DNA of 39,909 nucleotides. Origin: a virus. Every line of letters begins with the position of its first letter. Positions within the stretch are counted from its first letter, which is position 1. Position numbers and translations under genes: made by a program. The notes below the pieces were generated by a model that was not told the origin of the DNA, made no database searches, and saw only the letters and a program-made list of their open reading frames with translations. The DNA lies in the UHGV virus genome UHGV-1354231, one strand, 5' to 3'. Below, one piece after another: positions 2,300 through 38,964 of the stretch.

Positions 2300-2446
2300 A
2301 ACAGCTTATTACTGATATGACCGGGCTGATCGGTTTCGGTTTGCTCACTGCTGGCGTTTATCTGTATGCAGGTCTGCCAGCGTCTCTGATGCTGTCGGGC
2401 TGTTTGTTGCTGCTTTATGCACTGGTGGTGTCCATGAGGAGAAAAC

Positions 2447-3673: not shown

Positions 3674-4265
3674 CCGTGAAACGCGCTGTTACAGCGGGGA
3701 GGTGCGGGCGGAACAATATGATAATGCCCCGACCCACATTCTGGGGTATGGCTCGGTATTTAACAGTCGTTCAGAACCTCTGTGGGGATTTCGTGAAATC
3801 ATCAAGCCGGGGGCTTTTGATGATGTACTGAATGATGATGTACGTGGCTTGTTTAATCATGATCCTAATTTCATTCTCGGACGAAGTTCTGCCGGCACGT
3901 TGTCATTGTCGGTGGATGAACGCGGTTTACGTTATGACATTGTTGCACCGGATACTCCGACTATTTGTGACCTGGTGCTGTCTCCAATGTTGCGTGGTGA
4001 CATTAATCAGTCCTCGTTCGCGTTTCGTGTCGCCCGTGACGGAGAGAGCTGGTATGAAGACGACGAGGGGATTGTTATCCGGGAAATCACGCGCATTTCT
4101 CGTCTGTATGACGTCAGCCCGGTGACATATCCGGCCTATCAGGACGCAGACTCTGGTGTCCGCTCAATGAAAGCCTGGCAGGAAGCGCGGGCGAGTGGTG
4201 CGCTGAAGAAAGCTGTTAACGAACGAATGGCGCGTGAGCGTCTTTTGACCCTTCTTAATGCATAA
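3666..4265 (+). CDS. Prohead maturation protease (HK97 family)
   Basis: 199-aa ORF overlapping portal end; position between portal and major capsid. Confidence 0.8.
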   Translation: MNDRETRCYSGEVRAEQYDNAPTHILGYGSVFNSRSEPLWGFREIIKPGAFDDVLNDDVRGLFNHDPNFILGRSSAGTLSLSVDERGLRYDIVAPDTPTICDLVLSPMLRGDINQSSFAFRVARDGESWYEDDEGIVIREITRISRLYDVSPVTYPAYQDADSGVRSMKAWQEARASGALKKAVNERMARERLLTLLNA

Positions 4266-4279
4266 GGATACTACTGACG

Positions 4280-20616: not shown

Positions 20617-20904
20617 ATGGATATCACGTCGATACTTCATGCGCTTTGTGCCGTAGCGGTGCAGGTACTGGCTGGTCTTTTTACCGGAAACTGGGCTTAC
20701 GGGGCGATAGCCGGTTGTACGTTCTTCATTGCTCGTGAACATACCCAGGCAGAATATCGCTGGATTGAAATGTTCGGGCATGGCAAGCGAATGAATATGC
20801 CGTGGTGGGGCGGTTTTGATCCGCGCGCGTGGGATGTAGCAAGCCTGATGGATTTTGCTGTGCCGGTGGTGGCGTGTCTGCTGATCTGGATGTTGATCCG
20901 TTAA
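20617..20904 (+). CDS. Hypothetical small membrane protein (two predicted TM segments)
   Basis: 95-aa ORF with AAGGA SD; hydrophobic N- and C-terminal stretches; no family recognised. Confidence 0.45.
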   Translation: MDITSILHALCAVAVQVLAGLFTGNWAYGAIAGCTFFIAREHTQAEYRWIEMFGHGKRMNMPWWGGFDPRAWDVASLMDFAVPVVACLLIWMLIR

Positions 20905-21144
20905 ATATAAAAGCCGCAGTAACTTGCCATGATAGGATACTGCGGCTGGCTGGTTAACTTTCGATAGTGCGAGTATTGAATGATTTCCAGCCGTTACTGA
21001 TTTTATATAACGGCAGTGGAATTATTCAACACACAGGCAAAACACAGGCAAAACGGAATAAGCTGAGAAAAAAAGCGTGCTTTCCCAATCTGGGGCAAAT
21101 CACGTCTGAATGACACCTGAAAACAGGTGGTGGACTCAAGAAGG

Positions 21145-21155
21145 CTTGGAATATT
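21145..21155 (+). repeat. Putative Int arm-type site (CTTGGAATATT), left arm
   Basis: Exact copy of the motif repeated at 21374 and 21387. Confidence 0.55.
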
Positions 21156-21171
21156 CTTCTTTAATGTTATG

Positions 21172-21184
21172 TAATTCATTGATT
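21172..21184 (-). promoter_or_regulatory. IHF-like site (AATCAATGAATTA fits WATCAANNNNTTR)
   Basis: Consensus match on the minus strand between the two left-arm repeats. Confidence 0.35.
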
Positions 21185-21206
21185 TTTCGTGTACGATTTT
21201 AAGACA

Positions 21207-21217
21207 TTTATTCCAAG
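21207..21217 (-). repeat. Putative Int arm-type site, inverted copy (CTTGGAATAAA)
   Basis: 9 of 11 match to the arm motif in inverse orientation. Confidence 0.45.
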
Positions 21218-21256
21218 AAAAATTTTTAACTCTTTGATTTTTCTACTCTGTATCAT

Positions 21257-21318
21257 CGGTCTCGAAAACCGGAGTGGGGGCAACTCCACCGGGGGTTCAA
21301 ATCCCCCTCTCTCCGCCA
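21257..21318 (+). other. 3' ~62 nt of a tRNA-Ser(CGA) gene (anticodon stem to CCA); att core, not a complete tRNA
   Basis: CGGTCTCGAAAACCGGAG...GGGGGTTCAAATCCCCCTCTCTCCGCCA matches the enterobacterial serU-type tRNA 3' portion as recalled; no 5' acceptor/D-arm upstream. Confidence 0.75.
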
Positions 21319-21363
21319 AAATTCAATCACTTACACATCATTAAGTCAGTGACAAAAATCACA

Positions 21364-21397
21364 CTTGGAATTACTTGGAATATTTTCTTGGAATATT
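21364..21397 (+). repeat. Three tandem arm-type sites (CTTGGAAT(T/A)TT) overlapping the int 3' end
   Basis: Copies at 21364-21371, 21374-21384, 21387-21397. Confidence 0.6.
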
Positions 21398-22396
21398 TTC
21401 AGGTAACGGGACATCAAGTGTTGGTGAAACTTTAACCTTCCTGTCATAGATTAGCACTTGCCCTTCGGTTTTGTGACCAGAGAAAAGTTGCTTATCCCGG
21501 CTGCTTCCTTCATAGTCTGAAATTCCTTTCGCCTTCAGATCATGAAAGGTGAAGTCGGTTAAAATACCTGAAATTTTGCCTGCGCGATTTCTTGCATCTA
21601 CCCACATTTCGTTAAAGCCTTTGTACATATATCGGTTGCCGTATTGATTGCTGATCACATAGGCAGATTTTGGCAACTGTTTTGCTTTTTCGATCGCTGC
21701 CTGTAATCGTGGACTCCATGCTTTTATCTGTTTTTTTCCGGTTTTCCCTTGCTGGATGAATATCCCGTCGTTTCCAATCTGTTCCCATTTCAGCGATAAC
21801 ACATCGGAAACCCTCGCTGCACACAGATAGGCAATTTCCATTGCGATAAAAACAGGAAGAGGTGCAACGCTTAATACTGCCTGGTATTCTTTGTCGGTTA
21901 CATATCGTTCGCGGTTTTTGGCCTTGAATTTACTTACACCTGCACATGGGTTAGCCTTCACGTACCCTCGCTCATACCCCCAACTGTAAACACGGGACAT
22001 ACTGCTTTTTTCATGGTTGGCTTGCGTTTTACTCTGCTCCCCTCTTTTGTCCATGTATCGACGGATGTGTTCTGGTTTTATGGAATCCGCTGGTACCTTA
22101 CCGAATACGGCAAGCAACTTTTTTTGATGTTGCAGATAATCTTTTTGTGTTCTTGGACTAAGGTCACTGTAATAGGCGCTGGCGAGGAATTTTTCCCACA
22201 AGCGACCGAATGTCATTGCACGATCGCGATTATTTACAGTTTCCTCATACTTTTTCCATAAAGCAGCTAAACCATCCTTGATGGCGGTTAGTGTGACAGA
22301 TTCTCTGGATGTTGGTTTCCATACATAACTATATTTATTTGGGTATACATTTGGAGGTAATTTTTCGTGTTCAGGATTTTTCCTTCGTCTTCCCAT
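21371..22396 (-). CDS. int: Tyrosine integrase (lambda Int family)
   Basis: 341 aa; N-terminal MGRRR arm-binding-type start; FSGHK and HDLKAKG-like catalytic-region motifs; adjacent to att. Confidence 0.9.
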   Translation of the reverse strand: MGRRRKNPEHEKLPPNVYPNKYSYVWKPTSRESVTLTAIKDGLAALWKKYEETVNNRDRAMTFGRLWEKFLASAYYSDLSPRTQKDYLQHQKKLLAVFGKVPADSIKPEHIRRYMDKRGEQSKTQANHEKSSMSRVYSWGYERGYVKANPCAGVSKFKAKNRERYVTDKEYQAVLSVAPLPVFIAMEIAYLCAARVSDVLSLKWEQIGNDGIFIQQGKTGKKQIKAWSPRLQAAIEKAKQLPKSAYVISNQYGNRYMYKGFNEMWVDARNRAGKISGILTDFTFHDLKAKGISDYEGSSRDKQLFSGHKTEGQVLIYDRKVKVSPTLDVPLPENIPRKYSK

Positions 22397-22599
22397 CAGA
22401 TCGCACCAAAATTCGGCTCTACCTCGCGTGGTGGTAAAGTTTTATTGCAGGTAAATAGATCCCGGCTGACAATCGGTTTGCCACTACGATTGGTATAGAA
22501 CGGAAGCCCGTTTTCCATTAACCATTTTCGCTGGTGGCTTGCATATTTGCAGCCCGTTAATATTAGCAATTCATCTTCGGTTAAAAATAAGCTGCTCAT
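22396..22599 (-). CDS. xis: Excisionase-like protein
   Basis: 67-aa ORF overlapping the int start by 1 nt; typical int-xis arrangement. Confidence 0.6.
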   Translation of the reverse strand: MSSLFLTEDELLILTGCKYASHQRKWLMENGLPFYTNRSGKPIVSRDLFTCNKTLPPREVEPNFGAI

Positions 22600-22657: not shown

Positions 22658-25084
22658 TTAAAAATCAGCCTGACTCGGGATCAGTTTTTGCCAGATAGCT
22701 GAAACGTATTTTGCCTGGTAACGAGCGTCATCAAGTGCATTATGGCGCTCACCTTCGAATGGGATAGCAGTTCTGGCATCGAAGTCTATGGCTTTCCCCA
22801 GCTCAACGATTGTGCGTACATCGCGATCGTTGCAGTAGCGCCACGGGCAGGGGATACCCTGTCGTTCGTATGAACGGCGTAAAATCACGTTGTCGAAGTT
22901 GGCCCCATTACCCCAGACCTGAACAAAAAATTCACCGGAGTTTTCGTCGATAAATTCCCGCAATTGCAGTAGTGCATCATCTAACGGGATTTCATCGGTC
23001 ATAATGGCAGACTGCGCCTCACGTGATTGCTTCAGCCACCATTTAATGACGTCACGATCAATGACTCCGCCAGCAGTATCCAGATCGATGGTCTTGCTAA
23101 ATTCCGGTCCCATATCTCCGGTTTGTGGATCGAAAAATATTGCGCCTATTGAGATAATCGGGGCATCGGGATTTTTTCCCATGGTTTCAAGGTCGATCAT
23201 CAGATGAATCCCCGCTCTGCTGGTGGATGTGAGCTTATGATGACCATTCACCTTAATTAAGGGATCTGTCGCCTCGCCAGTTTTATTATCGCTGGCGTGA
23301 TGCTGATTGCCGCCAGGGTTCTCCTTGTGTGGATGTTCAGCGCCTCCCATTTCCTCCGGATCATTTTCCTGAACTTCAACCTGATTCTCTTCATCGAATG
23401 TTTCCTGGTATGTTGCGTCGCCCATCACCGCGCCACAATCAGGGCAGTTGTCGCCACCGCTCTGACCACAGGCGGTGCAGACTTTTTCCGGTTCCTGTTG
23501 CGCTACTGGTTTGGATTGTTTCGTTTCTGGCTCGTTTTGTAACGCATTTGGGCTGTTTTGTTCCGCTTTTTGGTCGTTCCGTTCCGATTCATGCTGGTTC
23601 TGGTTCACAGAATCGCGAGTCTGGATCCCCTTGACCCATTTCGGATCATTAGGGTCGCTAATCCCCTCAACAAATTCACCACGCGATACAGCAAGTAACT
23701 TATCGGCGTCAGGCTGGCTGATATTGGCTGCCTGCATAATTTTGTTTACTTCGTCAGCGGTGACTTTTACTTGGTTAGCGGAACTCACCTGCGACTGAGC
23801 GTTCTGGCAATGTTCAGTTGTATCCGGTTCCATTGTTTCAGTTGTTGCCTGTTCACCTGCCATTGCGTCAGATGGTTGTGGTTTTTCTTCCTCTGTTTCA
23901 CGTTCAGTAACCACCTCGCGGTTAATTTCTTCCAGGATATCTTTTTCCGGCGTATGCCGGGCAGCTGTGAGAGTTTCCTTGCTGGGGTTCTCGTGATCAG
24001 TTTCCGTCAAATAGGCGTTGATATACCCCTGAAGGCGTCCCGGGTAGTGATAAAATTCAGGGTGTGCGCTTCGGATAAGTGCAAAAATAGCGGCGCGGGA
24101 ATAGTCCAGAATACCCGGGGTTGCACGAAGTGCTGCGGACCATTCTTTGAACGGACTTTCTTTTTTTAGGACTACTTCTTTTGCGCGACGATAAACGCTG
24201 CCCGGAATTTCATAAATATTAAAATCCATCGGAAGTGTGGCTGCTGCAATCTCCACATCCAGTGTGTCGAGGGTGTGTACTAAATTCGGATTGCGATCGG
24301 TTTTGTTCCCACCGCCAGCATTAGCACCGGAAGCCGTGCGGGTGATGCGTGAAACACGATTTCCTTTCATCCACTCTTTTGTCAGCAGACCCCGATCAAT
24401 GTAGTCAGCGTCCAGGTATGCTTCGAAAAAAGCAGTTATTAGTCCCAGGTCTGAATTACCAGGATTAGGGAAAACTTTGTCAGTGTCACGAACCAGTTTG
24501 TGGAGGTCGCGAATCTCCAGCGAGTCGAGCAGACTGGTTTTATGCGAAATAGCCAGAGCAGTAACAGCCGGTAGTTCTTCAGCCCGTGCAATGTATAATG
24601 CCTGGAGTTCGTCGCGTGAAACGTGCGTTACTGGTTTTTCGCTGCCGTGTTGAGCAAGCCAACGAATGGGCAGTTCCTGACCGGAGACAGGCAGAAGCAT
24701 GCTCTCCTCAATCTCAGTCATGTCTTCGCCGTTGATGTTGGTATTGTCAGTGCTGGCTGGTTTGTCCTGAACAGAGGGGGAAGGGCCGATAAATGTCATT
24801 GTGATGCCATCTTTCCCGCCTTTTTCATAGCGGTTGCAGAATTCAGTATCAAACACGCCTTCTGGCGGAAGGTCGTCAACAACGGGCAAATTGACGCGGA
24901 CGGGTTTTTTAAAGTCGTCTTCATCATAATCGTTGTCATCCATTGCGGTAATGCAGCGGGAGATTGCAACAGATAATTTTTTTGCTGTAGTCCAGTAAAA
25001 ACCACCTTTAATTCCCAGGCGTTTTCTTACTTTGTCATTTTTTGCTTCGCAATATAGTGCAAATTCTTCTTTATCAGTGCTCAT
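22658..25084 (-). CDS. RecE-like prophage exonuclease: RecE-type N-terminal region and zinc ribbon fused to a DnaQ-like DEDDh 3'-5' exonuclease domain
   Basis: Long stretch resembling E. coli RecE N-terminal region as recalled; CxxC...CxxC ribbon; C-terminal MIDLETMG, FDNVIL and HNALDDA exo motifs. Confidence 0.7.
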   Translation of the reverse strand: MSTDKEEFALYCEAKNDKVRKRLGIKGGFYWTTAKKLSVAISRCITAMDDNDYDEDDFKKPVRVNLPVVDDLPPEGVFDTEFCNRYEKGGKDGITMTFIGPSPSVQDKPASTDNTNINGEDMTEIEESMLLPVSGQELPIRWLAQHGSEKPVTHVSRDELQALYIARAEELPAVTALAISHKTSLLDSLEIRDLHKLVRDTDKVFPNPGNSDLGLITAFFEAYLDADYIDRGLLTKEWMKGNRVSRITRTASGANAGGGNKTDRNPNLVHTLDTLDVEIAAATLPMDFNIYEIPGSVYRRAKEVVLKKESPFKEWSAALRATPGILDYSRAAIFALIRSAHPEFYHYPGRLQGYINAYLTETDHENPSKETLTAARHTPEKDILEEINREVVTERETEEEKPQPSDAMAGEQATTETMEPDTTEHCQNAQSQVSSANQVKVTADEVNKIMQAANISQPDADKLLAVSRGEFVEGISDPNDPKWVKGIQTRDSVNQNQHESERNDQKAEQNSPNALQNEPETKQSKPVAQQEPEKVCTACGQSGGDNCPDCGAVMGDATYQETFDEENQVEVQENDPEEMGGAEHPHKENPGGNQHHASDNKTGEATDPLIKVNGHHKLTSTSRAGIHLMIDLETMGKNPDAPIISIGAIFFDPQTGDMGPEFSKTIDLDTAGGVIDRDVIKWWLKQSREAQSAIMTDEIPLDDALLQLREFIDENSGEFFVQVWGNGANFDNVILRRSYERQGIPCPWRYCNDRDVRTIVELGKAIDFDARTAIPFEGERHNALDDARYQAKYVSAIWQKLIPSQADF

Positions 25085-25177: not shown

Positions 25178-25369
25178 TTAAAATCCTGCCGGGATTTCGT
25201 TATTATCCTGGTGAATAACTTTATCGACCGGATAACAGTTGCCTGGAATTTTCTGTTCGGTTGCTGCTGCCATACATTCCTGCATTGTTCTGTGAACACT
25301 GACTGCAATATCAACTGGCTCTCCGGAAACAAGAAAAACCGTCAGAATAAGTGCAAATACTGGATTCAT
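25178..25369 (-). CDS. Small secreted / lipoprotein-like protein (63 aa)
   Basis: Internal ATG at 25369 with AAGGA SD; N-terminal hydrophobic signal-like segment; two Cys. Confidence 0.4.
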   Translation of the reverse strand: MNPVFALILTVFLVSGEPVDIAVSVHRTMQECMAAATEQKIPGNCYPVDKVIHQDNNEIPAGF

Positions 25370-25554
25370 TGTGCACATCCTTTTGGCATCAGACGTAAAC
25401 GGGCCAGCATTGAAACAATGCATACTTTATTTAATAACTCCCGTTCGTGTTTTCTTTTGTTAATGGCATCTTCAGTAAATACAGGATTACTGATAGTGAC
25501 ACCAATTTCAAAACAACCTTCAGACGTATTAACGTTTGGTAATAACGTTTTCAT
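25366..25554 (-). CDS. Hypothetical 62-aa protein
   Basis: Internal ATG of ORF 25366..25659; coupled to the downstream small gene. Confidence 0.3.
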   Translation of the reverse strand: MKTLLPNVNTSEGCFEIGVTISNPVFTEDAINKRKHERELLNKVCIVSMLARLRLMPKGCAQ

Positions 25555-26121
25555 TATCGCGCCCTCAACAATGAGTTTTGTGATGCGGTGCCTGGTGCCT
25601 CCAGGTGACGTTAACCAGTTAACAATTAACGCCGGATACAGAGAATCCACCCATAACACTGTTTTTGGTTTTAACTGTTCCGCGTGCGCTTAGCCGCATT
25701 CACCGCATCACAAAATTCACTTTAAAAAGGGCGGCAGAGCAGTCACGGAGTAAAACTGATACCGCCAAACGTCACCAGAAAATTGATAACAGAGGGCGTT
25801 GCAGCGGGGTTGTCACTTAAGCGTATGGTCAACCTGACAACCCGGTGTCCTCAACGGGGAAGGAATAACCCCGCCATACTTACCGCCGCGCCATTTCGCG
25901 GAGTGCCACAACTGGAAGCGCACGGTCGACGAAAATTTAACGACAGGCTATCTATGAACCAGCTACCTCGCCGTGCGCTTTCGCGTTATGGTCTGACTTT
26001 TCATGGAAATATCCTTTCAGTAAACTGTCAGTGCCGGATGCTCACCCGTGTCCGGCGCACGCACTCCACCTCACCCGTGGAGAACTCCTTAATTACCAAC
26101 CTTAGCTTCGTTGGTTAGCTA

Positions 26122-26340
26122 TTAACGCGGGTATGTAATCATTCTGGCAATGCTTAATGCCGCTGCTTTTTCCAGCCTGGTGATATCCTGCTCCAGAGCG
26201 GACAGATTTTCAGCCTGCTTAGCCCTGGCTTCATTGGCCCATTTCAGATCCTGCGCTGCATTAATTTTCTGGCGCATCCACTCATAAAGTTCATCATCGG
26301 TATAGTCTGGCGCGATGATGACGGGTTCTCGTTTCTGCAT
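26122..26340 (-). CDS. Hypothetical 72-aa early-left protein
   Basis: ORF in the leftward operon; no family recognised. Confidence 0.45.
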   Translation of the reverse strand: MQKREPVIIAPDYTDDELYEWMRQKINAAQDLKWANEARAKQAENLSALEQDITRLEKAAALSIARMITYPR

Positions 26341-26369: not shown

Positions 26370-26498
26370 TCAGCCGTTAGATTTTGCCGAGCTGGAAAGC
26401 GCCTGTTTAAACTCACTGAAGCTGAGAGCTTCTTCGCCTTCGGCAAGGCCTTCGAAGTATTCTTCGTAAGCCTTTTCCATGATTGTGTCGAAATCCAT
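26370..26498 (-). CDS. Small acidic 42-aa protein (below the ORF-track cutoff)
   Basis: Hand translation MDFDTIMEKAYEEYFEGLAEGEEALSFSEFKQALSSSAKSNG; GGTGAG SD; start abuts the upstream gene stop. Confidence 0.4.
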   Translation of the reverse strand: MDFDTIMEKAYEEYFEGLAEGEEALSFSEFKQALSSSAKSNG

Positions 26499-26499
26499 A

Positions 26500-26736
26500 T
26501 CACTCACCTGAGTTTCTTTCCAGCCAGCGACGGGCACCATTTTCGGTTTTAAACGTTTTGCTTTTGGTATACGTCATCGCGGTGAATGTGCCGTCCTGGT
26601 TGGGAAACACGCCGTACACCAGAGATTCGTTGTTGCCAAGATCGATAGTATCCATGTTGACCTCATTTCCCCTTAACGCCGGGGTAGCGGAACAAAAACC
26701 TGCTGCATAGTTATTAAAGTTGAACCCTGCCGTCAT
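26500..26736 (-). CDS. Hypothetical protein, first gene of the leftward operon (real start may be the internal ATG at 26655)
   Basis: 78-aa ORF downstream of the putative pL. Confidence 0.45.
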   Translation of the reverse strand: MTAGFNFNNYAAGFCSATPALRGNEVNMDTIDLGNNESLVYGVFPNQDGTFTAMTYTKSKTFKTENGARRWLERNSGE

Positions 26737-26836: not shown

Positions 26837-26865
26837 AATCTAAAAGTATTTAGTTTTATAGTCAA
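26837..26865 (-). promoter_or_regulatory. Putative pL promoter (TTGACT-17-TAGATT) overlapped by an OL-like operator (AATCTAAAAGTATTTAGTTT, 26837-26856)
   Basis: Palindrome matches the OR site at 27644-27663 in 16 of 20 positions; -35/-10 hexamers with 17-bp spacer on the minus strand. Confidence 0.45.
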
Positions 26866-26883: not shown

Positions 26884-26909
26884 TAAAAAAAAGGTCGGCA
26901 TAACCGACC
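26884..26909 (-). terminator. Rho-independent terminator for the repressor gene
   Basis: GGTCGG-cataa-CCGACC hairpin followed on the minus strand by an 8-9 T run, just after the cI stop. Confidence 0.6.
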
Positions 26910-26932
26910 TTAAGTTCAAGGACATGGCAGGG

Positions 26933-27580
26933 TTATAGGTTGAACTGCACACCTTTTGCTACGGCAACAATTTTACACTCTGGCGTAAGCAAGGATGATT
27001 GATAGCGCGGATTGAGAGGGCTTAAATACACAAGTTTTCCATCAATAACTAATTTTTTTATAGTCATAGACGGTTCATTTGTAAGTGGATCTGGAACTAT
27101 TACAGCGACGATACTGCCATTTTTATAACTCTCTCCTGGTCTTAGGATCACAGTGGCACCAACCGGGATACTTGGCGACCCTGAGGGGTTATGCATAGTG
27201 TCATCAGGCATTGAAACGGCAAAATCACCTTCCACTACATCAAAGAATGTGGTGATCCTATCGACATTTCCCATTGTTTTCTCTCCTTCTAAGATTAGGA
27301 AAGAAATCGCGTCACCCCACGAAAAGTAGGGGATCTTGGTGCCTGGATTGCTCTGCACAAAAGATAGTTCAGGAGACGATACTCCATACAGGAGATAGGA
27401 CTCAGTAGTTCCTAATGCCTGGGCTAACTTACTTAGAGCTTTGCTGCCGGGTTCGTTTAGATCTTTCTCCCAGTACCCTATAGTAACCCCAGTCACGCCT
27501 GAAAGCTTACCCAGTTCTACTTGGGTGAGTCCCTTATCTTTTCTGAGTTTCTTAAGCCTGATGCCAAGGCTTTCCATCAT
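26933..27580 (-). CDS. CI-type phage repressor (HTH_XRE N-terminal domain + LexA/S24 peptidase C-terminal domain)
   Basis: 215-aa ORF divergent from a cro-like gene; HTH motif LTQVELGKLSGVTGVTIGYWE; S24-like C-terminal domain. Confidence 0.9.
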   Translation of the reverse strand: MMESLGIRLKKLRKDKGLTQVELGKLSGVTGVTIGYWEKDLNEPGSKALSKLAQALGTTESYLLYGVSSPELSFVQSNPGTKIPYFSWGDAISFLILEGEKTMGNVDRITTFFDVVEGDFAVSMPDDTMHNPSGSPSIPVGATVILRPGESYKNGSIVAVIVPDPLTNEPSMTIKKLVIDGKLVYLSPLNPRYQSSLLTPECKIVAVAKGVQFNL

Positions 27581-27676: not shown

Positions 27677-27904
27677 ATGCGAGTTGATGAACTTGTTCAG
27701 TTTTTTGGCTCTGTTCAGAGGGTCGCTGATTTTTATGGGATAACCCGCGAAGCTATTTACATGTGGCGTAAGCGCCCCGGTGAAATAGTTCCGAAAGGGA
27801 GGGCTGCGGAAGCTGCTGCATACTCCAAGGGAAAATTATCTTTGAACCCAGAGCTTTACAAAAAGAAGGATACCACCCGGGACAAAAGGAAGAGTGATTC
27901 ATGA
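27677..27904 (+). CDS. Cro-like HTH regulator (YdaS-like)
   Basis: 75-aa ORF divergent from cI with GGAGAG SD. Confidence 0.65.
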   Translation: MRVDELVQFFGSVQRVADFYGITREAIYMWRKRPGEIVPKGRAAEAAAYSKGKLSLNPELYKKKDTTRDKRKSDS

Positions 27905-30197: not shown

Positions 30198-30369
30198 CTA
30201 TCAAGAACTGCGCGAGGCGGCGGAACAGGCAACGCAAGATGAATGGGTAGCATATATTTTGCCGGGTCATAACGGCATTTATCCTGCGCGCACGTCTGAG
30301 GGTAGGCATTGTGCGGATACTTTATTGACTGGCCTGGCGTCTGTCAGGGGCGGGAGAGCATCAACATGA
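30184..30369 (+). pseudogene. Ea22-like N-terminal fragment; frame breaks before the Ea22-like body at 30366-30872
   Basis: N-terminus MSKINYQELREAAEQ and DNA at 30184-30230 closely parallel 30869-30915; ORF stops after 61 codons. Confidence 0.4.
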
Positions 30370-30872
30370 GCATCAGAACCTACGCAGTGAATTGCAATGA
30401 CGCATGGCTAAACACCGAAGGTGATGACATCTCCGGCTCATACGTTAAGTACAAAGACCATCAGGAAGTGGTTGCCGCTCTTGAGGCCAAGTGCGCGGCG
30501 CTGGCAGCGGAGAATGCGGGAATAAAGTCTGCAATTCCAGAATCACGGGATATTGAAGATGACAATGACAATATGGATGACGTATCTCTCGCGGAAGACT
30601 TCGGGTTCAATCATGCAATAGAACGGATGAGGAGACAGATACCTGAAACACCAACCACTGATGCTTTCCTGGCTGAAGTCCGGGCGCAGGGGGTGGATGC
30701 TGCTATAGAAGCTGCAAAAAATCTGGTGGCCCAAGAATATGAGTATAAGGATTTCAAAGCGGCGCAGAGTGATTGCTGTATGTACCCTGGTTCAGACCTG
30801 GTAGGGAAGGTTGAAATGACTGAGTGGTTAGTTGACTTTGCTGCCCAGCTTCGCAAAGGAGGCAACCAGTGA
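30366..30872 (+). CDS. Ea22-like protein body (168 aa from ATG 30366)
   Basis: Coiled-coil Ala-rich region and DAFLAEVRAQGVD-type segment typical of Ea22-like proteins as recalled. Confidence 0.5.
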   Translation: MSIRTYAVNCNDAWLNTEGDDISGSYVKYKDHQEVVAALEAKCAALAAENAGIKSAIPESRDIEDDNDNMDDVSLAEDFGFNHAIERMRRQIPETPTTDAFLAEVRAQGVDAAIEAAKNLVAQEYEYKDFKAAQSDCCMYPGSDLVGKVEMTEWLVDFAAQLRKGGNQ

Positions 30873-32128
30873 GCGAAATTAATTACCAGGCACTGCGTGA
30901 GGTGGCGGAACGTGCAATTCCAGCAATGGAACGCCTGTTAATGTTGCCAGCTGATGATGACTTGTTAAGTGAACAGGAACTTAAAGATTACGGTGTGGAT
31001 ATTGATGCGCTCAACGCCTTCAAATTTCTGACCGGACCAGAAACCGTGCTGGCACTGCTGGATGAACGGGAAAGAAACCTGCAATACATCAAAAGCCGCG
31101 ATCAGGAGAACGAGGATATTGCGCTAACGGTAGGGAAGCTGAGAGTTGAGCTTGAGGAAGTAAAACAACACGCTGAAGAATTATCCGAAACCAAGGCTGT
31201 TCGTAACCAATGGCGGCCAGATATTTGCCCAATAACCGGACGTGCATTTTTCATGTGGATTGAGCATCCAACATTGGGGAATGTGCCGACATATGGTGGC
31301 CCATTAGATAGTTACACCATTCCAACAAAGGACGGTGACGGTGAGTTTTCATGTGAGCGTTACGATCATGATTTTGGCGGTTGGGTAGAAAGCGAATGTC
31401 TTGGGTTATATCTGATTGATGATAGAGAACAATGCAGGGTCTACGAACTGGAGGAACGCGTTAAGGAACTGGATGCTCGGGAAATATCGCTCCCGGAACG
31501 TAGCAGCATGCTTCATCGAACAGATTTTCACGATGATTACCAAACGGTAATGGCATACAAAGTTTCTGAAGTCATCGCTGCAATCCGCGCCGCCATGCTT
31601 CAGTCCGGAAACTTTCGGGAAAACAAGAATTCGTCAACCAATAATTTTCGGGAAATCGCGGAAACGTCAACCAACTATCCGGCAATTCCTAGTGAGGTGT
31701 TGTCCGCAATCCTGAAGGTTGCCAGGATTCGTGCCGATTTCGATGATTTTGACGGTGACAGGCGAGGTATCGGTGATTGTCTGGATGAGGCTGAGCAAGA
31801 GCTTATCGTTACCATTAACAAATATGCCAGTCAGTTGGCAGCAGAACCTATAGCGCCTAATGACGTTCGAGAGCAGACAGCCATTCCACAAGTTCCGGCA
31901 ACTCCGGATGGTTGGATAAGCTGTAGTGAGCGAATGCCTGAGAACATTCCCGGAAGTTGTAAAGAGTATCTGGTGTTTGATGGGCTTAATAATAAAGTTC
32001 ATCACGATTACTGGGTTGTCCCTGATGGAGACAGTGCGCCAGTTGCGTCGTTCTGGAATCATTACGGGGCACATGTAACCCACTGGATGCCGCTACCAGA
32101 ACCGCCGCAGGAGGTTAACCGTGGCTAA
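30869..32128 (+). CDS. Ea22-like protein with DUF551-type C-terminus
   Basis: N-terminus MSEINYQALREVAE; C-terminal HWMPLPEPP motif. Confidence 0.65.
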   Translation: MSEINYQALREVAERAIPAMERLLMLPADDDLLSEQELKDYGVDIDALNAFKFLTGPETVLALLDERERNLQYIKSRDQENEDIALTVGKLRVELEEVKQHAEELSETKAVRNQWRPDICPITGRAFFMWIEHPTLGNVPTYGGPLDSYTIPTKDGDGEFSCERYDHDFGGWVESECLGLYLIDDREQCRVYELEERVKELDAREISLPERSSMLHRTDFHDDYQTVMAYKVSEVIAAIRAAMLQSGNFRENKNSSTNNFREIAETSTNYPAIPSEVLSAILKVARIRADFDDFDGDRRGIGDCLDEAEQELIVTINKYASQLAAEPIAPNDVREQTAIPQVPATPDGWISCSERMPENIPGSCKEYLVFDGLNNKVHHDYWVVPDGDSAPVASFWNHYGAHVTHWMPLPEPPQEVNRG

Positions 32129-32741: not shown

Positions 32742-32782
32742 GAGTAGATTATGCATGATGAATTTGATGGGTTTTGAATACT

Positions 32783-32808
32783 GCCGCCAACTATGGCGGC
32801 TTTATTTT
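32783..32808 (+). terminator. Rho-independent terminator upstream of the second small terminase
   Basis: GCCGCC-aactat-GGCGGC followed by TTTATTTT. Confidence 0.65.
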
Positions 32809-32815
32809 GCATGGT

Positions 32816-32844
32816 ACTATTACCACAACGGTAACTATTACCAC
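32816..32844 (+). repeat. Direct repeat ACTATTACCAC x2 (18-bp period) upstream of the second small terminase
   Basis: Copies at 32816-32826 and 32834-32844. Confidence 0.7.
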
Positions 32845-32851
32845 GGTGGTT

Positions 32852-33292
32852 ATGATGCCTGCTGAACCTAAAACCTATAAACGCAAATCAACGCAATTTA
32901 AGCCACTAACAGCAATGCAGGAGGCTTATTGCCAGTCATACATCAAAACGCCTGAAAACCAGACTCAGGCAGCGATTAACGCAGGATTCTCCCCAAATAC
33001 AGCGGCAGTTAAAGCCAGTGTCATGATGCGCGATGAACGCATTCAAAAACGGATTGCCGAGTTGATGGAGGAGCGCAACAAACGAATGCGCGTCAGTGCT
33101 GATTACGTTCTCATGCGCCTGGTGGAGATCGACCAGATGGACGTGATCGACATCCTCAACGACGATGGGAGCCTTAAACCAATCCGTGAGTGGCCGAAAA
33201 TCTGGCGCACTACGCTTAGTGGCTTTGATCTGTCATCGACCATCATGAACATGAACGAGGATTCGATAGAGACAATCCTACAAAAAAATTAA
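32852..33292 (+). CDS. Terminase small subunit of the second packaging module; probably truncated by a frameshift in an A7 tract
   Basis: HTH-like segment typical of small terminases; start taken at ATGATG 32852 after the terminator rather than ORF start 32774. Confidence 0.6.
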
Positions 33293-33445
33293 ATGGCCTG
33301 ACAAGGTGAAGAACCTTGAGCTGATTGGTAAGCATGTTGATGTCAACGCGTTCAAAGAACGTCTGGATGTTAATGTGAATGTGACAATTGCTGATCGCAT
33401 AGCAGCAGCCAGGAAGCGACTCAAAGAACGTCAGGATGGTAATCA

Positions 33446-34921
33446 GTGACAGATACAGCGTTATCTCCTGAAGAGCAGTTGATCGAGGATATTGCAGGGT
33501 TCACTCACGATCCGCTTGGCTATGCCCTCTATGCGTTCCCGTGGGGGGAAGAGGGGACTGAACTGGCACATGCTACCGGCCCACGTCAGTGGCAGGCTGA
33601 TGCGTTCCGAGAGATACGTGATCACCTGCAGAATCCAGAGACGCGCTATCAGCCGCTTATGCTGGCACGTGCTTCGGGTCACGGTATTGGTAAATCCGCA
33701 TTCATCTCAATGCTGATCAACTGGGGCATGTCCACTTGCGAGGATTGTAAGGTCGTGGTGACCGCCAACACCGACAACCAGCTACGAACGAAGACCTGGC
33801 CGGAAATTATCAAGTGGTCGAACCTTGCTATCACGAAAGACTGGTTTACCTGTACCGCTACCGCGATGTACAGCAATGACCCAGGGCACGACAAGCGATG
33901 GCGGGCTGACGCAATACCCTGGTCTGAGCACAACACTGAGGCATTCGCCGGACTACACAACGAGCGCAAACGCATCATCGTGGTATTCGATGAAGCGTCG
34001 AACATTGCCGATCTGGTGTGGGAGGTAGCAGAGGGTGCGCTGACGGACGAAGACACCGAAATCATCTGGGTGGCGTTCGGGAACCCGACGCGTAACACCG
34101 GGCGTTTCCGTGAATGTTTCCGCAAGTACAAACACCGCTGGAAGTGTGCGCAGATTGACAGCCGGACGGTGGAAGGCACTAACAAACAGCAGTTGCAGAA
34201 ATGGGTTGATGACTACGGGGAAGACAGCGACTTCGTTAAAATCCGTGTGCGCGGCATATTCCCTGATGCATCTGAATTGCAGTTTATCCCTACCGGTCTT
34301 ACTGACGAGGCAATGAAACGGGTGGTAACCGCTGCGCAGGTTGCACATGCTCCGGTGATAATCGGTGTTGACCCGGCATATTCAGGCGTTGATGACGCGG
34401 TGATATACCTGCGGCAGGGGCTACACAGTAAGGTGCTGTGGACTGGCAACAAGACTACCGACGATCTGATTATGGCGAAGCGTATCGCTGATTTTGAAGA
34501 CCTGTATCAGGCTGACGCAGTGTTCATCGACTTTGGTTACGGTACCGGTCTGAAGTCAATCGGTGACGGTTGGGGGCGCACATGGCAACTTGTTCCGTTC
34601 GGTGGCGCGTCTACTGACCCGCAGATGCTCAACAAGCGTGGGGAGATGTTCAACTCATGCAAGACATGGCTGAGGCTGGGCGGGATGCTTGATGACCAGG
34701 AAACAGCGGACGACCTGTCGGCGGCAGAGTACAAAGTTCGAGTGGACGGTAAAATCGTTATCGAACCGAAGGAAGATATCAAGGAGCGGCTTGGGCGTTC
34801 GCCGGGTAAAGGCGATGCGCTATTGCTGACGTTTGCTTTCCCTGTGTCGAAGCGTCTGCGAATTCCAGGTCAGCAGAACCAGCAAGGCAAGGCCATTACA
34901 GATTACGATCCCTATGCTTAA
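33446..34921 (+). CDS. Terminase large subunit (second packaging module)
   Basis: 491 aa; Walker A-like GHGIGKS, Walker B-like VVFDEAS, C-terminal RNaseH-like nuclease region. Confidence 0.85.
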
Positions 34922-34971
34922 TCCGCTGGTGGGGATAATGTCGTTGATATCCTCTGGTGAGGATAAAACAA

Positions 34972-34998
34972 AGCCAGCTCATAGGCTGGCTGTTTGTG
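34972..34998. terminator. Hairpin between convergent genes (possible bidirectional terminator)
   Basis: GCCAGC-tcatag-GCTGGC flanked by T-rich sequence on the + strand and A-rich upstream; followed by the palindrome. Confidence 0.5.
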
Positions 34999-35007
34999 AC
35001 ATGTCAC
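34996..35007. repeat. Perfect 12-bp palindrome GTGACATGTCAC (copy 2)
   Basis: Identical to copy 1; position fixed using ORF 34957..35148 as coordinate anchor. Confidence 0.85.
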
Positions 35008-35011
35008 GGTG

Positions 35012-35367
35012 TTATTGCTCGCTTAACTTCTGCTTCAGCAAGTAACCTTCAAGCATCCAGATTTTGTTTACAGCATTCTGCCTGGCAATCTTCCGACCAA
35101 TTTCTGCATCAAAGTTTTCCGGGCTTGCACATGCGCTCTCTCCGGTGACGGTGAAGCCATTCTTCAGCACCAGTACGCAGAAAGTAAGGAGGTCTGTAGA
35201 TTTATGCGCTGTCCACGTATCGCCAACGCCCATATTGGCAGCACGAATGCCGTCATAAGCAGTAAAGAAATGCTCTTCAAGAATGATGCTTTCGATATAT
35301 TGAGGCGTAACTCGCGGAGCGGTTTTGCCTTTCTCAACGATTCTTTTTCGATTTGCTGGTCGTTCAT
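35012..35367 (-). pseudogene. Unknown moron gene with a good start at 35367 (frame A, 67 aa) running into a longer open frame ending at 35012; apparently frame-disrupted
   Basis: GGTGAG SD before ATG 35367; second frame open for ~115 codons but its first ATG (35233) has no SD. Confidence 0.35.
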
Positions 35368-35566
35368 AATCTCACCTTAAAAAAAATGCCCGTCGAACCG
35401 GGCGAACTGGAAGCAATGAGTTATGCCTTCCGTGGCTGTACGGGTTTACAGCATGAAGTCATCGCAATGGCGTCCTGCTGTAAAAAGGGCGGTGATAGTC
35501 CTTCAAGGGAAACTGTCACCGCCAAGCACCTGGAACTTCTGGCATCACGGTCCTTAGGCGTGATTC

Positions 35567-35644
35567 TGGCGTGGCATGCAGGATTCGAACCTGACAACCA
35601 ACCGCTTAGAAGGCGGTTGCTCTGTCCAACTGAGCTAATGCCAC
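35567..35644 (-). tRNA. tRNA-Arg (anticodon UCU), phage-borne; T-stem reads with a one-base bulge
   Basis: Hand-folded cloverleaf: acceptor GTGGCAT/ATGCCAC, anticodon arm ACCGC-CTTCTAA-GCGGT, T-loop TTCGAAT, 3' GCCA; resembles argU as recalled. Confidence 0.7.
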
Positions 35645-36072
35645 AACGCTGAGAGCACTTAGCCTGTTAAGGCGCCTACACTTTGTCGCGGCTCCATAAA
35701 TGCTCTCATCGTTGTACCCTCGTCTCTTCCGAGGCGTCACACCGAATCGCCGGGATGGTGAATCCCCGTGCGCGGAATAAAACCGCTCGACTTGCACATT
35801 CCGGCTACCTGGTTCGTTTGCCCGAGCAAGGGAGGGTACCCCTTAAACGTATCCAGACCGCTATCGGCGCATGTGCCATACGCCGTACTGCTCAAAATAA
35901 AAGCTCACTCCACCTGTTCAATTTAACGACAAGCCAGTCAGGTTAATAACCGGAATGAACTCTTTGCCTACCTGAAAGGTAATAACTCGTGCGTTAAATG
36001 TCAATTATCTACGATAAATAAATCATATGTGGTTAAATTGGTAATAATTTAATTGCGTACGGAGTCATTGAT

Positions 36073-36279
36073 ATGTGCATGGGTAGCTCACCATCAGTGC
36101 CTGCAACACCAGAAGTTCAGGCAGCACCACAGGAGCAGGATGCCGCCGTTGTTGATGCCCGCGACGAAGAAACACGTCGCCGTCGCGCTGCTGCTGGTCG
36201 TAGTTCTACGCTGCTTACCGGTTCTCAGGGCGACACATCAACCGCTAATACCAGCGGTAAAACGCTACTTGGTCAGTAA
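36073..36279 (+). CDS. Hypothetical 68-aa protein upstream of the portal
   Basis: ORF with GGAG-like SD; Ala/Thr/Gln-rich low-complexity sequence. Confidence 0.3.
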   Translation: MCMGSSPSVPATPEVQAAPQEQDAAVVDARDEETRRRRAAAGRSSTLLTGSQGDTSTANTSGKTLLGQ

Positions 36280-36293
36280 CCGGAGTCATTGAA

Positions 36294-37973
36294 ATGGCGG
36301 AAACAACTAAAGAGCGATTGAACAAACAGTTCGCACAACTTGAAAGCGAGCGTCAGTCGTTCGAGCCGCACTGGCGCGAGTTGAGTGATTACATCAACCC
36401 GCGTGGTTCCCGCTTTCTGACTTCTGAGGTCAACCGTAACGATCGACGCAATACACGCATTATTGATTCGACCGGGACTATGGCGGCGCGCACTCTCGCC
36501 AGCGGCATGATGTCAGGCATCACAAGCCCCGCGCGTCCGTGGTTTCGCCTGGCTACGCCAGATCCTGAAATGATGGATTATGGCCCTGTTAAGTTGTGGC
36601 TTGAGGCCGTGCAGAACCGCATGAACGATATGTTCAATAAGTCGAATCTCTATCAGTCGCTGCCGCAGTTATATGGAAGCCTCGGCACATACAGCACCGG
36701 TGCAATGGCGGTACTGGAGGATGATGAGGACATCATTCGCACAATGCCATTCCCGATAGGCAGTTACTACCTAGCTAACTCACCTCGTGGCAGTGTGGAC
36801 ACCTGTTTTCGCAAGTTCTCTATGACTGTTCGTCAGCTTGTTCAGGAGTTCGGGCTAAATAACGTCAGCGAATCCGTAAAAAGCATGTGGGAAAGCGGCA
36901 CCTACGAGAAGTGGATTGAAGTGATGCATTCGGTTTACCCGAACATTGACCGCGATACATCGAAGCTGGATAGCAAGAACAAGCCATTCAAATCGGTTTA
37001 TTACGAGGTTGGTGGCGATAACGACAAGTTGTTGCGTGAGTCCGGATTCGATGAGTTTCCAATTATGGCTCCGCGCTGGGAAGTTAACGGCGAAGATGTT
37101 TATGGATCATCATGCCCGGGTATGCTGGCGCTTGGACCTGTTAAGGCATTGCAGCTTCTCCAGAAGCGCAAGTCGCAGTTGATTGATAAAGCCACCAATC
37201 CGCCGATGATTGCTCCGACTTCCCTCAAGAATCAGCGTGCCTCCCTTCTTCCTGGCGACATCACGTATATCGATCAGATTACTGGTCAGGATAGTTTCAG
37301 GCCTGCTTATCTGGTTAACCCCAGTACAGCAGATTTGGTGGCAGACATTCAGGACACTCGTCAAATCATTAACAGCGCCTACTTTGTCGATCTGTTCATG
37401 ATGTTGCAGAACATCAATACCCGCTCGATGCCTGTTGAAGCGGTGATCGAAATGAAAGAAGAAAAACTTCTGATGTTGGGGCCGGTTCTGGAGCGTCTGA
37501 ACGACGAATGTCTTAATCCTCTCATTGACCGCGCTTTCTCGATGATGGTGCGTAAAAACATGCTGCCGCCACCACCTGACGCGATGGAAGGTATGCCCCT
37601 GAAGGTCGAATACATTTCCGTCATGGCTCAGGCGCAGAAGTCTATCGGCCTGTCCAGTCTGGCATCCACGGTCAACTTCATTGGTCAACTTGCGCAAGCG
37701 AAACCAGAAGCTCTCGACAAACTCAACGTTGATCAGGCGATCGATGCATTCGCTGATATGTCCGGAGTGTCTCCAACCGTCATTGTTCCGCAGGAACAGG
37801 TTGAGCAGGCTCGCCAGCAACGGGCACAGCAACAACAGCAGCAACAAATGATGGCGATGGGGATGGCGGCGGCACAGGGTGCCAAGACGCTAAGCGAAGC
37901 TAAAACTTCGGATCCGAGTGTTTTGTCAGCTATGGCGAATGCATTTAGTGGTCAGGGTGGGCAATCACAATGA
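36294..37973 (+). CDS. Portal / head-tail connector protein (podovirus T7-type)
   Basis: 559 aa; Gln-rich C-terminus QQQQQQQMMAMGMAAAQGA resembles the T7 gp8 C-terminus as recalled; followed by scaffold and capsid genes. Confidence 0.75.
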   Translation: MAETTKERLNKQFAQLESERQSFEPHWRELSDYINPRGSRFLTSEVNRNDRRNTRIIDSTGTMAARTLASGMMSGITSPARPWFRLATPDPEMMDYGPVKLWLEAVQNRMNDMFNKSNLYQSLPQLYGSLGTYSTGAMAVLEDDEDIIRTMPFPIGSYYLANSPRGSVDTCFRKFSMTVRQLVQEFGLNNVSESVKSMWESGTYEKWIEVMHSVYPNIDRDTSKLDSKNKPFKSVYYEVGGDNDKLLRESGFDEFPIMAPRWEVNGEDVYGSSCPGMLALGPVKALQLLQKRKSQLIDKATNPPMIAPTSLKNQRASLLPGDITYIDQITGQDSFRPAYLVNPSTADLVADIQDTRQIINSAYFVDLFMMLQNINTRSMPVEAVIEMKEEKLLMLGPVLERLNDECLNPLIDRAFSMMVRKNMLPPPPDAMEGMPLKVEYISVMAQAQKSIGLSSLASTVNFIGQLAQAKPEALDKLNVDQAIDAFADMSGVSPTVIVPQEQVEQARQQRAQQQQQQQMMAMGMAAAQGAKTLSEAKTSDPSVLSAMANAFSGQGGQSQ

Positions 37974-38266
37974 CAGATTACGAAGACGATCAACTGAAAG
38001 AAGAAAACGCCCGTAAGCAACGTGACATGGCACAGCGTGAAATTGATGACATTCGCTTTGTCATGAGCAGTGAACAGGGGCGTCGCGTTGTCTGGTCGGT
38101 GCTGGAGAAAGGCCGGGTGTTTTCCGCTATCTCTCCGATGGATGCTATGGCAATGGCATTTAATGAGGGGCAACGCAATCTGGCGCTGGAACTGTTTCAG
38201 CGCGTTATGGCGCATTGCCCTGAACAGTATTTGAAGATGGCCAAAGAGGCCAGTGAACAGGAGTGA
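37970..38266 (+). CDS. Hypothetical 98-aa head-module protein
   Basis: ATGA overlap with the portal stop. Confidence 0.45.
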   Translation: MTDYEDDQLKEENARKQRDMAQREIDDIRFVMSSEQGRRVVWSVLEKGRVFSAISPMDAMAMAFNEGQRNLALELFQRVMAHCPEQYLKMAKEASEQE

Positions 38267-38964
38267 TCATGAATTTATTTGAGCGTTTGCTGTATCGCCG
38301 TCTTTGCAATGAGCAACCAGTTGATGGCGGAGCAGCTCCGGCTGCGTCAGAACCGTCAGCGCCTGCAGGTGATAACCCTGCTCCAGTTGGTGATCCATCA
38401 CAACTGGAAGGTGATAAGCCACAACCTGTTGCTGATGGCGATAAACCTGCTGATGACAAAAAGCCTGAAAACGATAAGCAGGATGAAAAAAAGGACGGCG
38501 ATAAACCAGAGGGGGCGCCTGAGAAGTACGAGTTTCAGGCTGCCGAAGGCGTAGAGCTGGATACAGAAGCGTTGAAGGAATTCGAGCCGGTGGCGCGAGA
38601 ACTTAACCTGACCAACGAGCAAGCGCAAAAGCTGGTTGATGCTTATCCGAAGATTCTGGCAGGTGTTCAGCAGCGCCAGGCAGAAGCCTGGCAGAAAACA
38701 ACCGAGCAGTGGGCTGCGGATGTAAAAGCTGACAAAGAAATCGGTGGCGACAAGTTGATTTCTAACCTTAGCGCCGCACAGCGTGCGCTTGACCAGTTCG
38801 GGACACCTGAACTCAAAGAATATCTGAACACCACCGGACTGGGTAATCACCCTGATCTGGTCAAAACGTTCGTGAAAATCGGAAAGGCGATGTCTGAAGA
38901 TGGCATGGTCACCGGTGGTAATGAAGGCCAGCGTAGTGCGGCCGAAGTGCTCTATGGCAAATAA
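38263..38964 (+). CDS. Putative scaffolding protein (acidic, Pro/Asp/Lys-rich N-terminal half); likely start at ATG 38269
   Basis: Position between portal and major capsid; AGGAG SD upstream. Confidence 0.5.
   Translation: MIMNLFERLLYRRLCNEQPVDGGAAPAASEPSAPAGDNPAPVGDPSQLEGDKPQPVADGDKPADDKKPENDKQDEKKDGDKPEGAPEKYEFQAAEGVELDTEALKEFEPVARELNLTNEQAQKLVDAYPKILAGVQQRQAEAWQKTTEQWAADVKADKEIGGDKLISNLSAAQRALDQFGTPELKEYLNTTGLGNHPDLVKTFVKIGKAMSEDGMVTGGNEGQRSAAEVLYGK

Follow-up and report, generated by a model that had tools for sequence, protein, structure and literature searches.

The gene described here lies on the minus strand of the virus genome UHGV-1354231, a stretch of 39,909 nucleotides that was analysed at its full length and is referred to below as the window. 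An open reading frame (ORF) at positions 22658-25084 encodes a complete exonuclease of 808 residues, as determined from the ORF list together with scans of the Pfam, NCBIfam and PHROG profile libraries, and it opens with an ATG that has a GAGG sequence 10 nucleotides upstream. The three libraries divide the protein alike, and the PHROGs that match its N-terminal, middle and C-terminal parts are distinct families. The protein consists of a RecE-type N-terminal part (residues 1-440), an acidic linker (residues 440-620) and a DexA-type DEDDh domain (residues 621-805). All parts of the gene, and all members of the operon to which it belongs, are read from the minus strand.

A RecE-type head joined to a DexA-type nuclease domain

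The original prediction, which was made from the sequence letters, had likened the N-terminal two thirds of the protein to RecE of the Rac prophage. A BLASTP comparison bears this out: residues 58-610 are 58% identical to residues 50-591 of the 866-residue RecE of E. coli K-12 (taken from NC_000913.3), and the similarity ends there. Within this region, Pfam PF06630 (Exonuc_VIII, the N-terminal region of enterobacterial exodeoxyribonuclease VIII) matches residues 57-189 (24518-24916; E 3.2e-35) inside a RecE-type module that spans residues 1-260, of which residues 117-260 are about 90% identical to K-12 RecE. The first 57 residues and the segment at 261-438 are divergent alleles relative to Rac RecE. 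In an alignment that spans Escherichia, Kluyvera, Klebsiella, Raoultella and Citrobacter, many columns of a widely shared block at residues 250-370 (NAGGGNKTDRNP...GILDYSRAAIFALIR; 23975-24337) are invariant, and it is residues 220-360 that the 50%-identity representatives of the protein family cover most. A 2023 review (PMC11611040) lists the N-terminal region of RecE as functionally uncharacterised and credits full-length RecE only with better linear-linear recombination. That enhancement has been assigned to the RecE N-terminal region by Fu et al. (2012), as cited in the same review.

The middle module (residues 439-610; 23255-23770) forms a linker that is acidic, for the most part disordered and marked by conserved residues at 461-480, and it is shared with RecE (about 80% identity to RecE 460-591) and with an 823-residue protein of phage Tritos (about 95% identity). 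Its acidic fraction is 0.16-0.24, and its values in the predicted local distance difference test (pLDDT) are mostly below 50. The module contains a four-cysteine, zinc-ribbon-like motif (CTAC...CPDC, residues 536-550; 23435-23479), which the original prediction had also picked out as CxxC...CxxC and which is present at 536-539 and 547-550. Both cysteine pairs, C536/C539 and C547/C550, are kept in RecE in the BLASTP alignment. The motif gives only a weak match to Pfam DZR (E 0.037) and falls in a low-confidence region of the AlphaFold2 (AF2) model.

The C-terminal part contains a DEDDh 3'-5' exonuclease domain, PF16473 (DexA/Rv2179c-like), at residues 627-798 (22691-23206). The match is strong (E 3.2e-66; 222.8 bits against a gathering score of 27) and covers profile positions 2-177 of 177. 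The DEDDh motifs read D631-L-E633, F730-D731-N732 (within NGANFDN) and H781-x4-D786, and an alignment made with MAFFT places D631, E633, D731, H781 and D786 opposite D7, E9, D119, H186 and D191 of T4 DexA (from AF158101), such that all five catalytic residues align. These residues are invariant or near-invariant in alignments of homologues from several genera. The only sequence relatives found in the PDB were the T4 DexA entries 8KEL and 8KEN, with E 3e-5 for the single sequence and 2.5e-15 for the family profile, and no RecE chain was matched in the PDB sequence search. In an AF2 model of residues 450-808, residues 621-805 are predicted with confidence (pLDDT about 90) and most of residues 485-620, including the cysteine motif, are disordered. 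A Foldseek search of the PDB with this model returned DexA (8kel) at the top (E 2e-10) and RNase T and Orn/REXO2 next; the probability was 1.00 in every case. Because the catalytic alignment, the AF2 model, the Foldseek result and the PDB profile result agree, we assign the domain to the DexA-type DEDDh fold. It is settled that the fold is DnaQ-like and not that of lambda Exo and RecE, and the predicted enzymatic class, a DEDDh 3'-5' exonuclease, is near certain. The original prediction had called the domain DnaQ-like; its fold assignment and its Exo I, II and III motifs stand, and the closest characterised relative is T4 DexA rather than a generic DnaQ. DexA is the best match in both sequence and fold and is likewise phage-encoded, but it shares only about 25% identity with the domain and is a stand-alone protein of 227 residues with extra loops.

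An in-frame ATG, M629, opens the DEDDh domain (23198-23220, minus strand), and a G-rich stretch, GAGCGGGGA, lies 8-16 nucleotides upstream of it. Database proteins listed as stand-alone versions begin exactly at M629. We considered whether the stand-alone E. coli DEDDh versions of 180-183 residues represent an autonomous gene and dropped this candidate, as at least P0090 (locus L012) is an artefact of N runs that split the long gene in a draft assembly.

The nuclease of RecE itself is absent. K-12 RecE matches PF12684, a PD-(D/E)XK nuclease family, at residues 615-850, and Pfam detected no PF12684 in the 808-residue protein. A tblastn search with RecE 592-866 gave no match in the whole window (best E 1.1). 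The NCBIfam equivalog model for exodeoxyribonuclease VIII, NF007259, aligned with residues 1-611 only, which correspond to model positions 1-603 of 877, and its 921.3 bits fall below the cutoff of 1269. The RecE PD-(D/E)XK nuclease is swapped for a DnaQ-like DEDDh domain, as the original prediction had proposed from the C-terminal motifs. Because RecE homology stops at RecE residue 591 and PF12684 occupies RecE 615-850, the exchange point lies in the linker just ahead of the nuclease domain. Many phage records annotate such genes as canonical RecE (exodeoxyribonuclease VIII), a label with which the RecE-like 610 N-terminal residues agree. However, the lack of PF12684, of similarity to RecE 592-866 and of any RecE chain in the PDB search, together with the NCBIfam score below cutoff and the lack of recT, speaks against it, and the domain tests refute this label, which we regard as having next to no chance of being right.

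An annealase partner is missing as well. The original prediction had stated that no annealase gene follows, and it holds: genes for an excisionase and an integrase lie directly downstream, and tblastn with RecT gave no match in the whole window (best E 0.23), such that no recT-like gene was found at the small ORFs. Pfam and PHROG scans of all ORFs of the early region revealed replication, regulatory and Ead/Ea22-type genes and detected neither an annealase nor a single-stranded DNA-binding protein. Furthermore, no annealase is annotated in the genome of phage Tritos, which is complete and viable and carries a sister gene, and none adjoins the orthologues in Kluyvera and Klebsiella prophages. 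Rac RecE differs on both counts, as it combines a C-terminal PD-(D/E)XK nuclease of 5'-3' polarity with recT as the next gene. Lambda Red (Exo and Beta) and RecET occupy the equivalent slot of the early-left operon and also comprise a nuclease that acts on DNA ends, but they differ from the window gene in polarity class, which is opposite, in fold and in having an annealase partner. Because its predicted polarity is opposite to that of RecE and lambda Exo and no annealase accompanies it, the enzyme could not be expected to make and anneal 3' overhangs, which argues that it is not a recombinase of the Red/RecET type. From the gene content, the gene does not appear to be part of a two-component recombinase of exonuclease and annealase.

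Operon and prophage context

As its final cistron, the gene closes a Qin-type dicBF operon, ydfA-ydfB-ydfC-dicF-dicB-ydfD-exo, and precedes xis and int. The genes upstream had been described in the original prediction as unknown, which is not so: ydfD, dicB, dicF, ydfC, ydfB and ydfA are the known dicBF genes of Qin, at 89-100% identity and in the same order. Immediately upstream lies a ydfD homologue (25178-25369) that encodes 63 residues with a hydrophobic N-terminus, matches PF07358 (DUF1482) and is 88.9% identical to K-12 YdfD, which is annotated 'lysis protein'. The next gene, dicB (25366-25554), encodes a cell-division inhibitor of 62 residues (PF05358, E 2e-39) with 96.8% identity to K-12 DicB. 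The small RNA DicF (25729-25780) was detected with Rfam RF00039 at 76.7 bits against a gathering score of 48 and is 100% identical to K-12 dicF. The first genes of the operon are ydfA (26500-26655; PF07151, DUF1391), ydfB (26370-26498) and ydfC (26122-26340), whose products are 98.6-100% identical to the K-12 Qin proteins.

On the other side, an excisionase-like gene (22396-22599, minus strand; DUF4224 in Pfam) is directly downstream and is followed by a tyrosine integrase gene (21371-22396, minus strand; Pfam), and this xis-int pair occupies the slot where recT would come after recE. The order dicB-ydfD-exo-xis-int recurs in other E. coli chromosomes, in phage records and in phage Tritos. Prophages of Kluyvera and Klebsiella keep exo-xis-int, and their upstream genes are less conserved. 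Rac-type phages instead have the order kilR-ydaE-racC-recE-recT-ralR-xis-int. Rac recE maps to the same place, late in the early-left operon and close to xis and int, but its operon carries kilR-ydaE-racC upstream in place of the dicBF-type genes found here.

A promoter-like site, TTGACT-17-TAGATT (26837-26865, minus strand), lies upstream of ydfA and downstream of a terminator-like hairpin at 26891-26911. It was identified by a consensus scan and could be a promoter of the early-left or dicB type. Promoter-like sites in this region were not above shuffled expectation in the promoter and terminator scan, and the operon promoter is a candidate only. Beyond the hairpin, a gene for a cI-type repressor of 215 residues (26933-27580, minus strand) encodes HTH_3 and Peptidase_S24 domains according to Pfam, and cro (27677-27904, plus strand; P22_Cro in Pfam) is divergent from it. 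This helix-turn-helix and S24 repressor is cI/LexA-like, presumably cleavable in the SOS response, and unlike the short DicA of K-12, with which it shares about 30% identity over about 60 residues. Because the repressor paired with the operon carries a peptidase S24 domain, we conclude that the dicBF-type operon of the present element probably responds to DNA damage.

The window holds two packaging and head modules. The first comprises genes for TerS, TerL, a portal, a protease and the major capsid protein at 129-5497, with tail genes that extend to 20332. The second (32774-38964) comprises TerS (32774-33292), TerL (33446-34921), a T7-type portal (36294-37973) and a protease (38263-38964). Beside int, at about 21264-21318, weak Rfam matches mark a tRNA-like 3' fragment, with a junction at about 20900-21371. 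This layout suggests that the window comprises two tandem prophages in a single att site, the second of which carries the exonuclease gene. Some complete E. coli chromosomes likewise have the tail fibre gene, int and exo side by side without interruption. Within the second element, a gene for tRNA-Arg (anticodon TCT; 35567-35644, minus strand) is located between the TerL and portal genes on the opposite strand. The region that leads from the replication genes to the second terminase module holds two adjacent Ead/Ea22-like genes (30309-32128, plus strand). The second of these two genes is fused to a DUF551 domain (419 residues).

Sister variants, distribution and exchange of domains

At the same locus in K-12, ydfD is followed by the pseudogene ydfE, which is cut by IS2. 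A direct likeness between the window protein and the K-12 ydfE product was considered and rejected, as the two show no similarity and the ydfE product is not RecE-like. K-12 YdfE (L004 6079-6999) is instead 99% identical to the first 256 residues of the 823-residue Tritos protein (L006 3641-6112), and because of this identity K-12 ydfE is identified as the IS2-truncated remnant of a Tritos-type DEDDh nuclease gene, which is a sister variant of the window gene. The Tritos protein and its mEp460 counterpart, both of 823 residues and annotated 'exonuclease VIII', are encoded at the same dicBF position, after ydfD and before xis and int, but their N-terminal 260 or so residues are of the unrelated YdfE type and not of the RecE type found in the window. 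The Tritos and window proteins are about 95% identical over residues 439-808 of the latter, and similarity is weak over residues 270-380. Because the two share the middle and C-terminal parts and differ in the N-terminal part, we read them as members of a family with exchangeable heads. On these alignments, the locus holds long proteins that combine a head of the RecE or YdfE type with a common middle part and, in these phages, a DEDDh nuclease.

The gene is also mosaic internally. Over residues 261-438 (23771-24304), nonsynonymous divergence (dN) from K-12 RecE is 0.63, compared with 0.15-0.20 in the flanks, and residues 261-380 diverge less from their counterparts in Klebsiella and Kluyvera (dN 0.27). 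This contrast in dN indicates recombination breakpoints inside the gene. We also obtained Nei-Gojobori estimates of the ratio of nonsynonymous to synonymous divergence (dN/dS). Relative to Tritos, dN/dS was 0.105 for the DEDDh domain and 0.32 for the middle part; relative to K-12 RecE it was 0.36 for residues 58-260; and relative to Klebsiella it was about 0.11 for residues 261-380, where dS is near saturation. These estimates point to a gene under purifying selection.

Genes of this kind are widespread. At least 80% of the whole gene was found by megablast in 1072 of 5426 complete E. coli genomes, in which the copies are annotated 'exonuclease', '3'-5' exonuclease' or '3'-5' exoribonuclease domain-containing protein'. 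The DEDDh segment is present in 4043 of these genomes (about 75%), with up to 7 copies per genome, which is more than twice the number that contain the RecE nuclease segment (1730). Many database proteins of 808 or 813 residues are 98-100% identical to the N-terminal 610 residues used as query and have the architecture PF06630 plus PF16473; E. coli proteins with 99-100% identity are annotated 'exonuclease' or '3'-5' exoribonuclease'. The same fusion is found, with 35-60% identity, in Kluyvera, Klebsiella, Raoultella and Citrobacter, which together with Escherichia and Shigella makes six genera, and relatives of the DEDDh domain were found in 1360 of 50,697 phage records, including T4-like phages. 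The DEDDh fusion is not unusual, as it is among the commonest E. coli prophage genes and carries the RefSeq name '3'-5' exonuclease'. Proteins that differ from it by no more than 1% already have RefSeq annotations, and the combination of PF06630 with PF16473 is on record for thousands of entries. A functional study, the predominance of the DEDDh version over true RecE in E. coli and the swapping of effectors on a RecE-type scaffold are absent from the searchable literature.

The mosaic structure raises the alternative that the gene is a decaying chimera, an accidental recombinant of a recE remnant and an exonuclease gene that has no selected function. The divergent allele at residues 261-438 would be consistent with such an origin, as would the swapping of N-terminal variants between prophages, the truncated copy in K-12 and the many database entries that are fragments. 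Against it stand the intact ORF of 808 codons, the dN/dS of 0.1 in the nuclease domain and the conservation of the architecture, at 35-60% identity, in six genera among which the catalytic residues do not vary. The gene is moreover present in viable phages, and at least some of the fragment entries are assembly artefacts that arise from N runs. We consider a decaying chimera very improbable.

To survey the partners of the N-terminal region, residues 1-610 were searched against 1.84 billion 50%-identity representatives, which yielded 260 relatives, and six modules were mapped on the 79 representatives of at least 450 residues that share the N-terminal region. About 20 of the 79 end in a RecE nuclease, about 15 end in a DEDDh domain and 36 have unassigned tails of at least 100 residues. 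One cluster of tails (n = 11) has a conserved domain of about 265 residues that matches PHROG 2489 and 7838. This domain, which resembles Rad52 by eye, gave sub-threshold matches to Pfam Rad52_Rad22 in 6 of 8 members (best E 0.0024) and no match in PDB sequence and profile searches. Its motif reads ...TSINxxYMxMRATExFGPxGxGWG...KKSLTDAxKKALSxLGFSADxxxGLYD, and the proteins concerned are P0248, P0299, P0317, P0321, P0324, P0348, P0386 and P0388. The tail may represent a fusion of the scaffold to a Rad52-like annealase, which we treat as a lead only. A second cluster (n = 12) comprises phrog_26058-type tails and, in at least one case (P0249), a partial remnant of a RecE nuclease. The phrog_26058 tails (P0305, P0308, P0355 and others) are acidic and without a Pfam match. 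Single fusions to RecT fragments look like deletions.

This pattern supports, but does not prove, the view that the N-terminal region is a reusable scaffold that is attached to different DNA-end enzymes. A stronger version of this view would be that the RecE/YdfE N-terminal region, and especially residues 250-370, forms an autonomous delivery module that has been combined with the RecE nuclease, the DexA-type nuclease, a putative Rad52-like domain and at least one further domain, a proposal that we put forward tentatively. The AF2 model of the N-terminal region contains folded domains at residues 4-100 and 128-245 (pLDDT 70-89), and the block at residues 250-370 has a pLDDT of about 30.

Substrate and role of the nuclease

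The product of the gene is, in our view, likely to be a modular nuclease that a lambdoid prophage of the Qin/dicBF type encodes among its early genes and that trims 3' DNA ends in lytic growth. Upon inactivation of the cI-type repressor, through induction or infection, the nuclease would be expressed with the rest of the early-left operon, a timing suggested by the gene order, the weak promoter-like site at 26837-26865 and the S24-type repressor. The enzyme would remove nucleotides at free 3'-OH ends in a Mg-dependent manner, and single-stranded DNA or 3' tails would be the likeliest substrates, as for T4 DexA. The N-terminal scaffold shared with RecE would bring the nuclease to the same target as RecE. 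The nuclease would trim or degrade 3' DNA ends, which could serve the salvage of broken host DNA, the removal of 3' tails from intermediates of phage replication and recombination, or both. T4 DexA is annotated as a 3'-5' DNA exonuclease that takes part in replication and in degradation of host DNA (PMC12153337). Because DexA is the only solved relative that can be detected by sequence and the other partners of the scaffold are DNA enzymes, DNA is the substrate that we favour, with some reserve. Taken by itself, the specific assignment, namely that the enzyme trims or degrades 3' ends in the lytic phase, is possible but doubtful.

Several points weigh against this reading. Literature searches gave no functional study of the present protein and no biochemical or genetic data on it or on close homologues. 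The substrate and the role are drawn from DexA, which is only 25% identical, and the timing of expression is deduced from the order of the genes and a promoter-like match that is weak. PF16473 takes its name from the RNA exonuclease Rv2179c, and the close fold neighbours include RNase T and oligoribonuclease, such that RNA or short oligonucleotides are possible substrates. With respect to the scaffold, the AF2 model of the N-terminal region has no informative structural relative in the PDB and is of low confidence in the block that is best conserved, and the idea of a targeting scaffold rests on the pattern of domain shuffling.

The last points about PF16473 lead to an alternative in which the protein is an RNA exonuclease, comparable to Rv2179c, RNase T or oligoribonuclease, that targets the dicBF transcript (for example, in the maturation of DicF), host RNAs or short oligoribonucleotides. 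PF16473 owes its name to a 3'-5' exoribonuclease of M. tuberculosis, the RefSeq name is often '3'-5' exoribonuclease', the next-best fold matches after DexA are RNase T and Orn/REXO2, and the gene lies downstream of the small RNA gene dicF in the same orientation. However, the profile of the domain family finds DexA among PDB sequences and none of Rv2179c, RNase T and Orn at E<=0.01, and the scaffold is otherwise joined to DNA enzymes, namely the RecE nuclease and possibly a Rad52-like domain. RNase E and RNase III generate DicF, and K-12 makes this RNA despite having only an IS2-truncated gene of the ydfE type. Taken together, these results make an RNA-directed function quite unlikely, and trimming of 3' DNA ends is the reading that we retain.

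A further alternative also takes DNA as the substrate and assigns the protein to anti-phage defence. In this case, the DEDDh domain would act as an HREX-type nuclease that degrades the hydroxymethylcytosine DNA of T-even phages and thereby protects the lysogen. A defensive role would be in keeping with the neighbouring dicB, a gene of Qin for which exclusion of some phages is known. EcD, a stand-alone DexA homologue of E. coli, digests T4 DNA and not unmodified DNA, and it protects cells from T4 (Kang et al., 2025; PMC12153337). Both EcD and the window domain are members of the DexA-like DEDDh family, and the start of EcD, MIDTET, resembles the sequence M629-IDLET of the window protein. However, EcD is a short stand-alone protein whose C-terminus, ..TIPETYD, is unlike that of the window protein, and the diagnostic residues appear to differ. 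W152 of DexA, the aromatic residue proposed to stack on 5-hydroxymethylcytosine, aligns with C751 beside an invariant N-x-RD motif, at a position that is Tyr in most homologues. D169, a DexA residue proposed to read 5-hydroxymethylcytosine, aligns with A765 in a region that aligns poorly at 25% identity. D90, which forms the DexA tetramer and is Ala in EcD, where the state is dimeric, aligns with D703, such that Asp is kept. No protein with the EcD start and end was present among the relatives retrieved, and EcD is hence a more distant homologue; furthermore, primer sequences from the supplement of PMC12153337 had no exact match in the viral or genome contigs or in the fetched proteins, a search for which the construct may have been codon-optimised. 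PADLOC returned only a weak, generic DEDDh match and no specific defence-system model, and the operon would be repressed in a stable lysogen. We regard anti-phage defence as unlikely and continue to favour an early-gene nuclease that trims 3' DNA ends.

These findings bear first on how such genes are named. Phage records still mislabel the gene 'exodeoxyribonuclease VIII', and a RecE-type annotation of such genes should not imply a RecET recombination system, which matters for recombineering mining and for prophage inventories. If the proposed modularity is correct, comparison of the naturally swapped domains would open the 30-year-old question of the RecE N-terminus to direct testing, and the DEDDh version would represent an annealase-independent pathway of end processing, with polarity opposite to that of RecE, in temperate phages.

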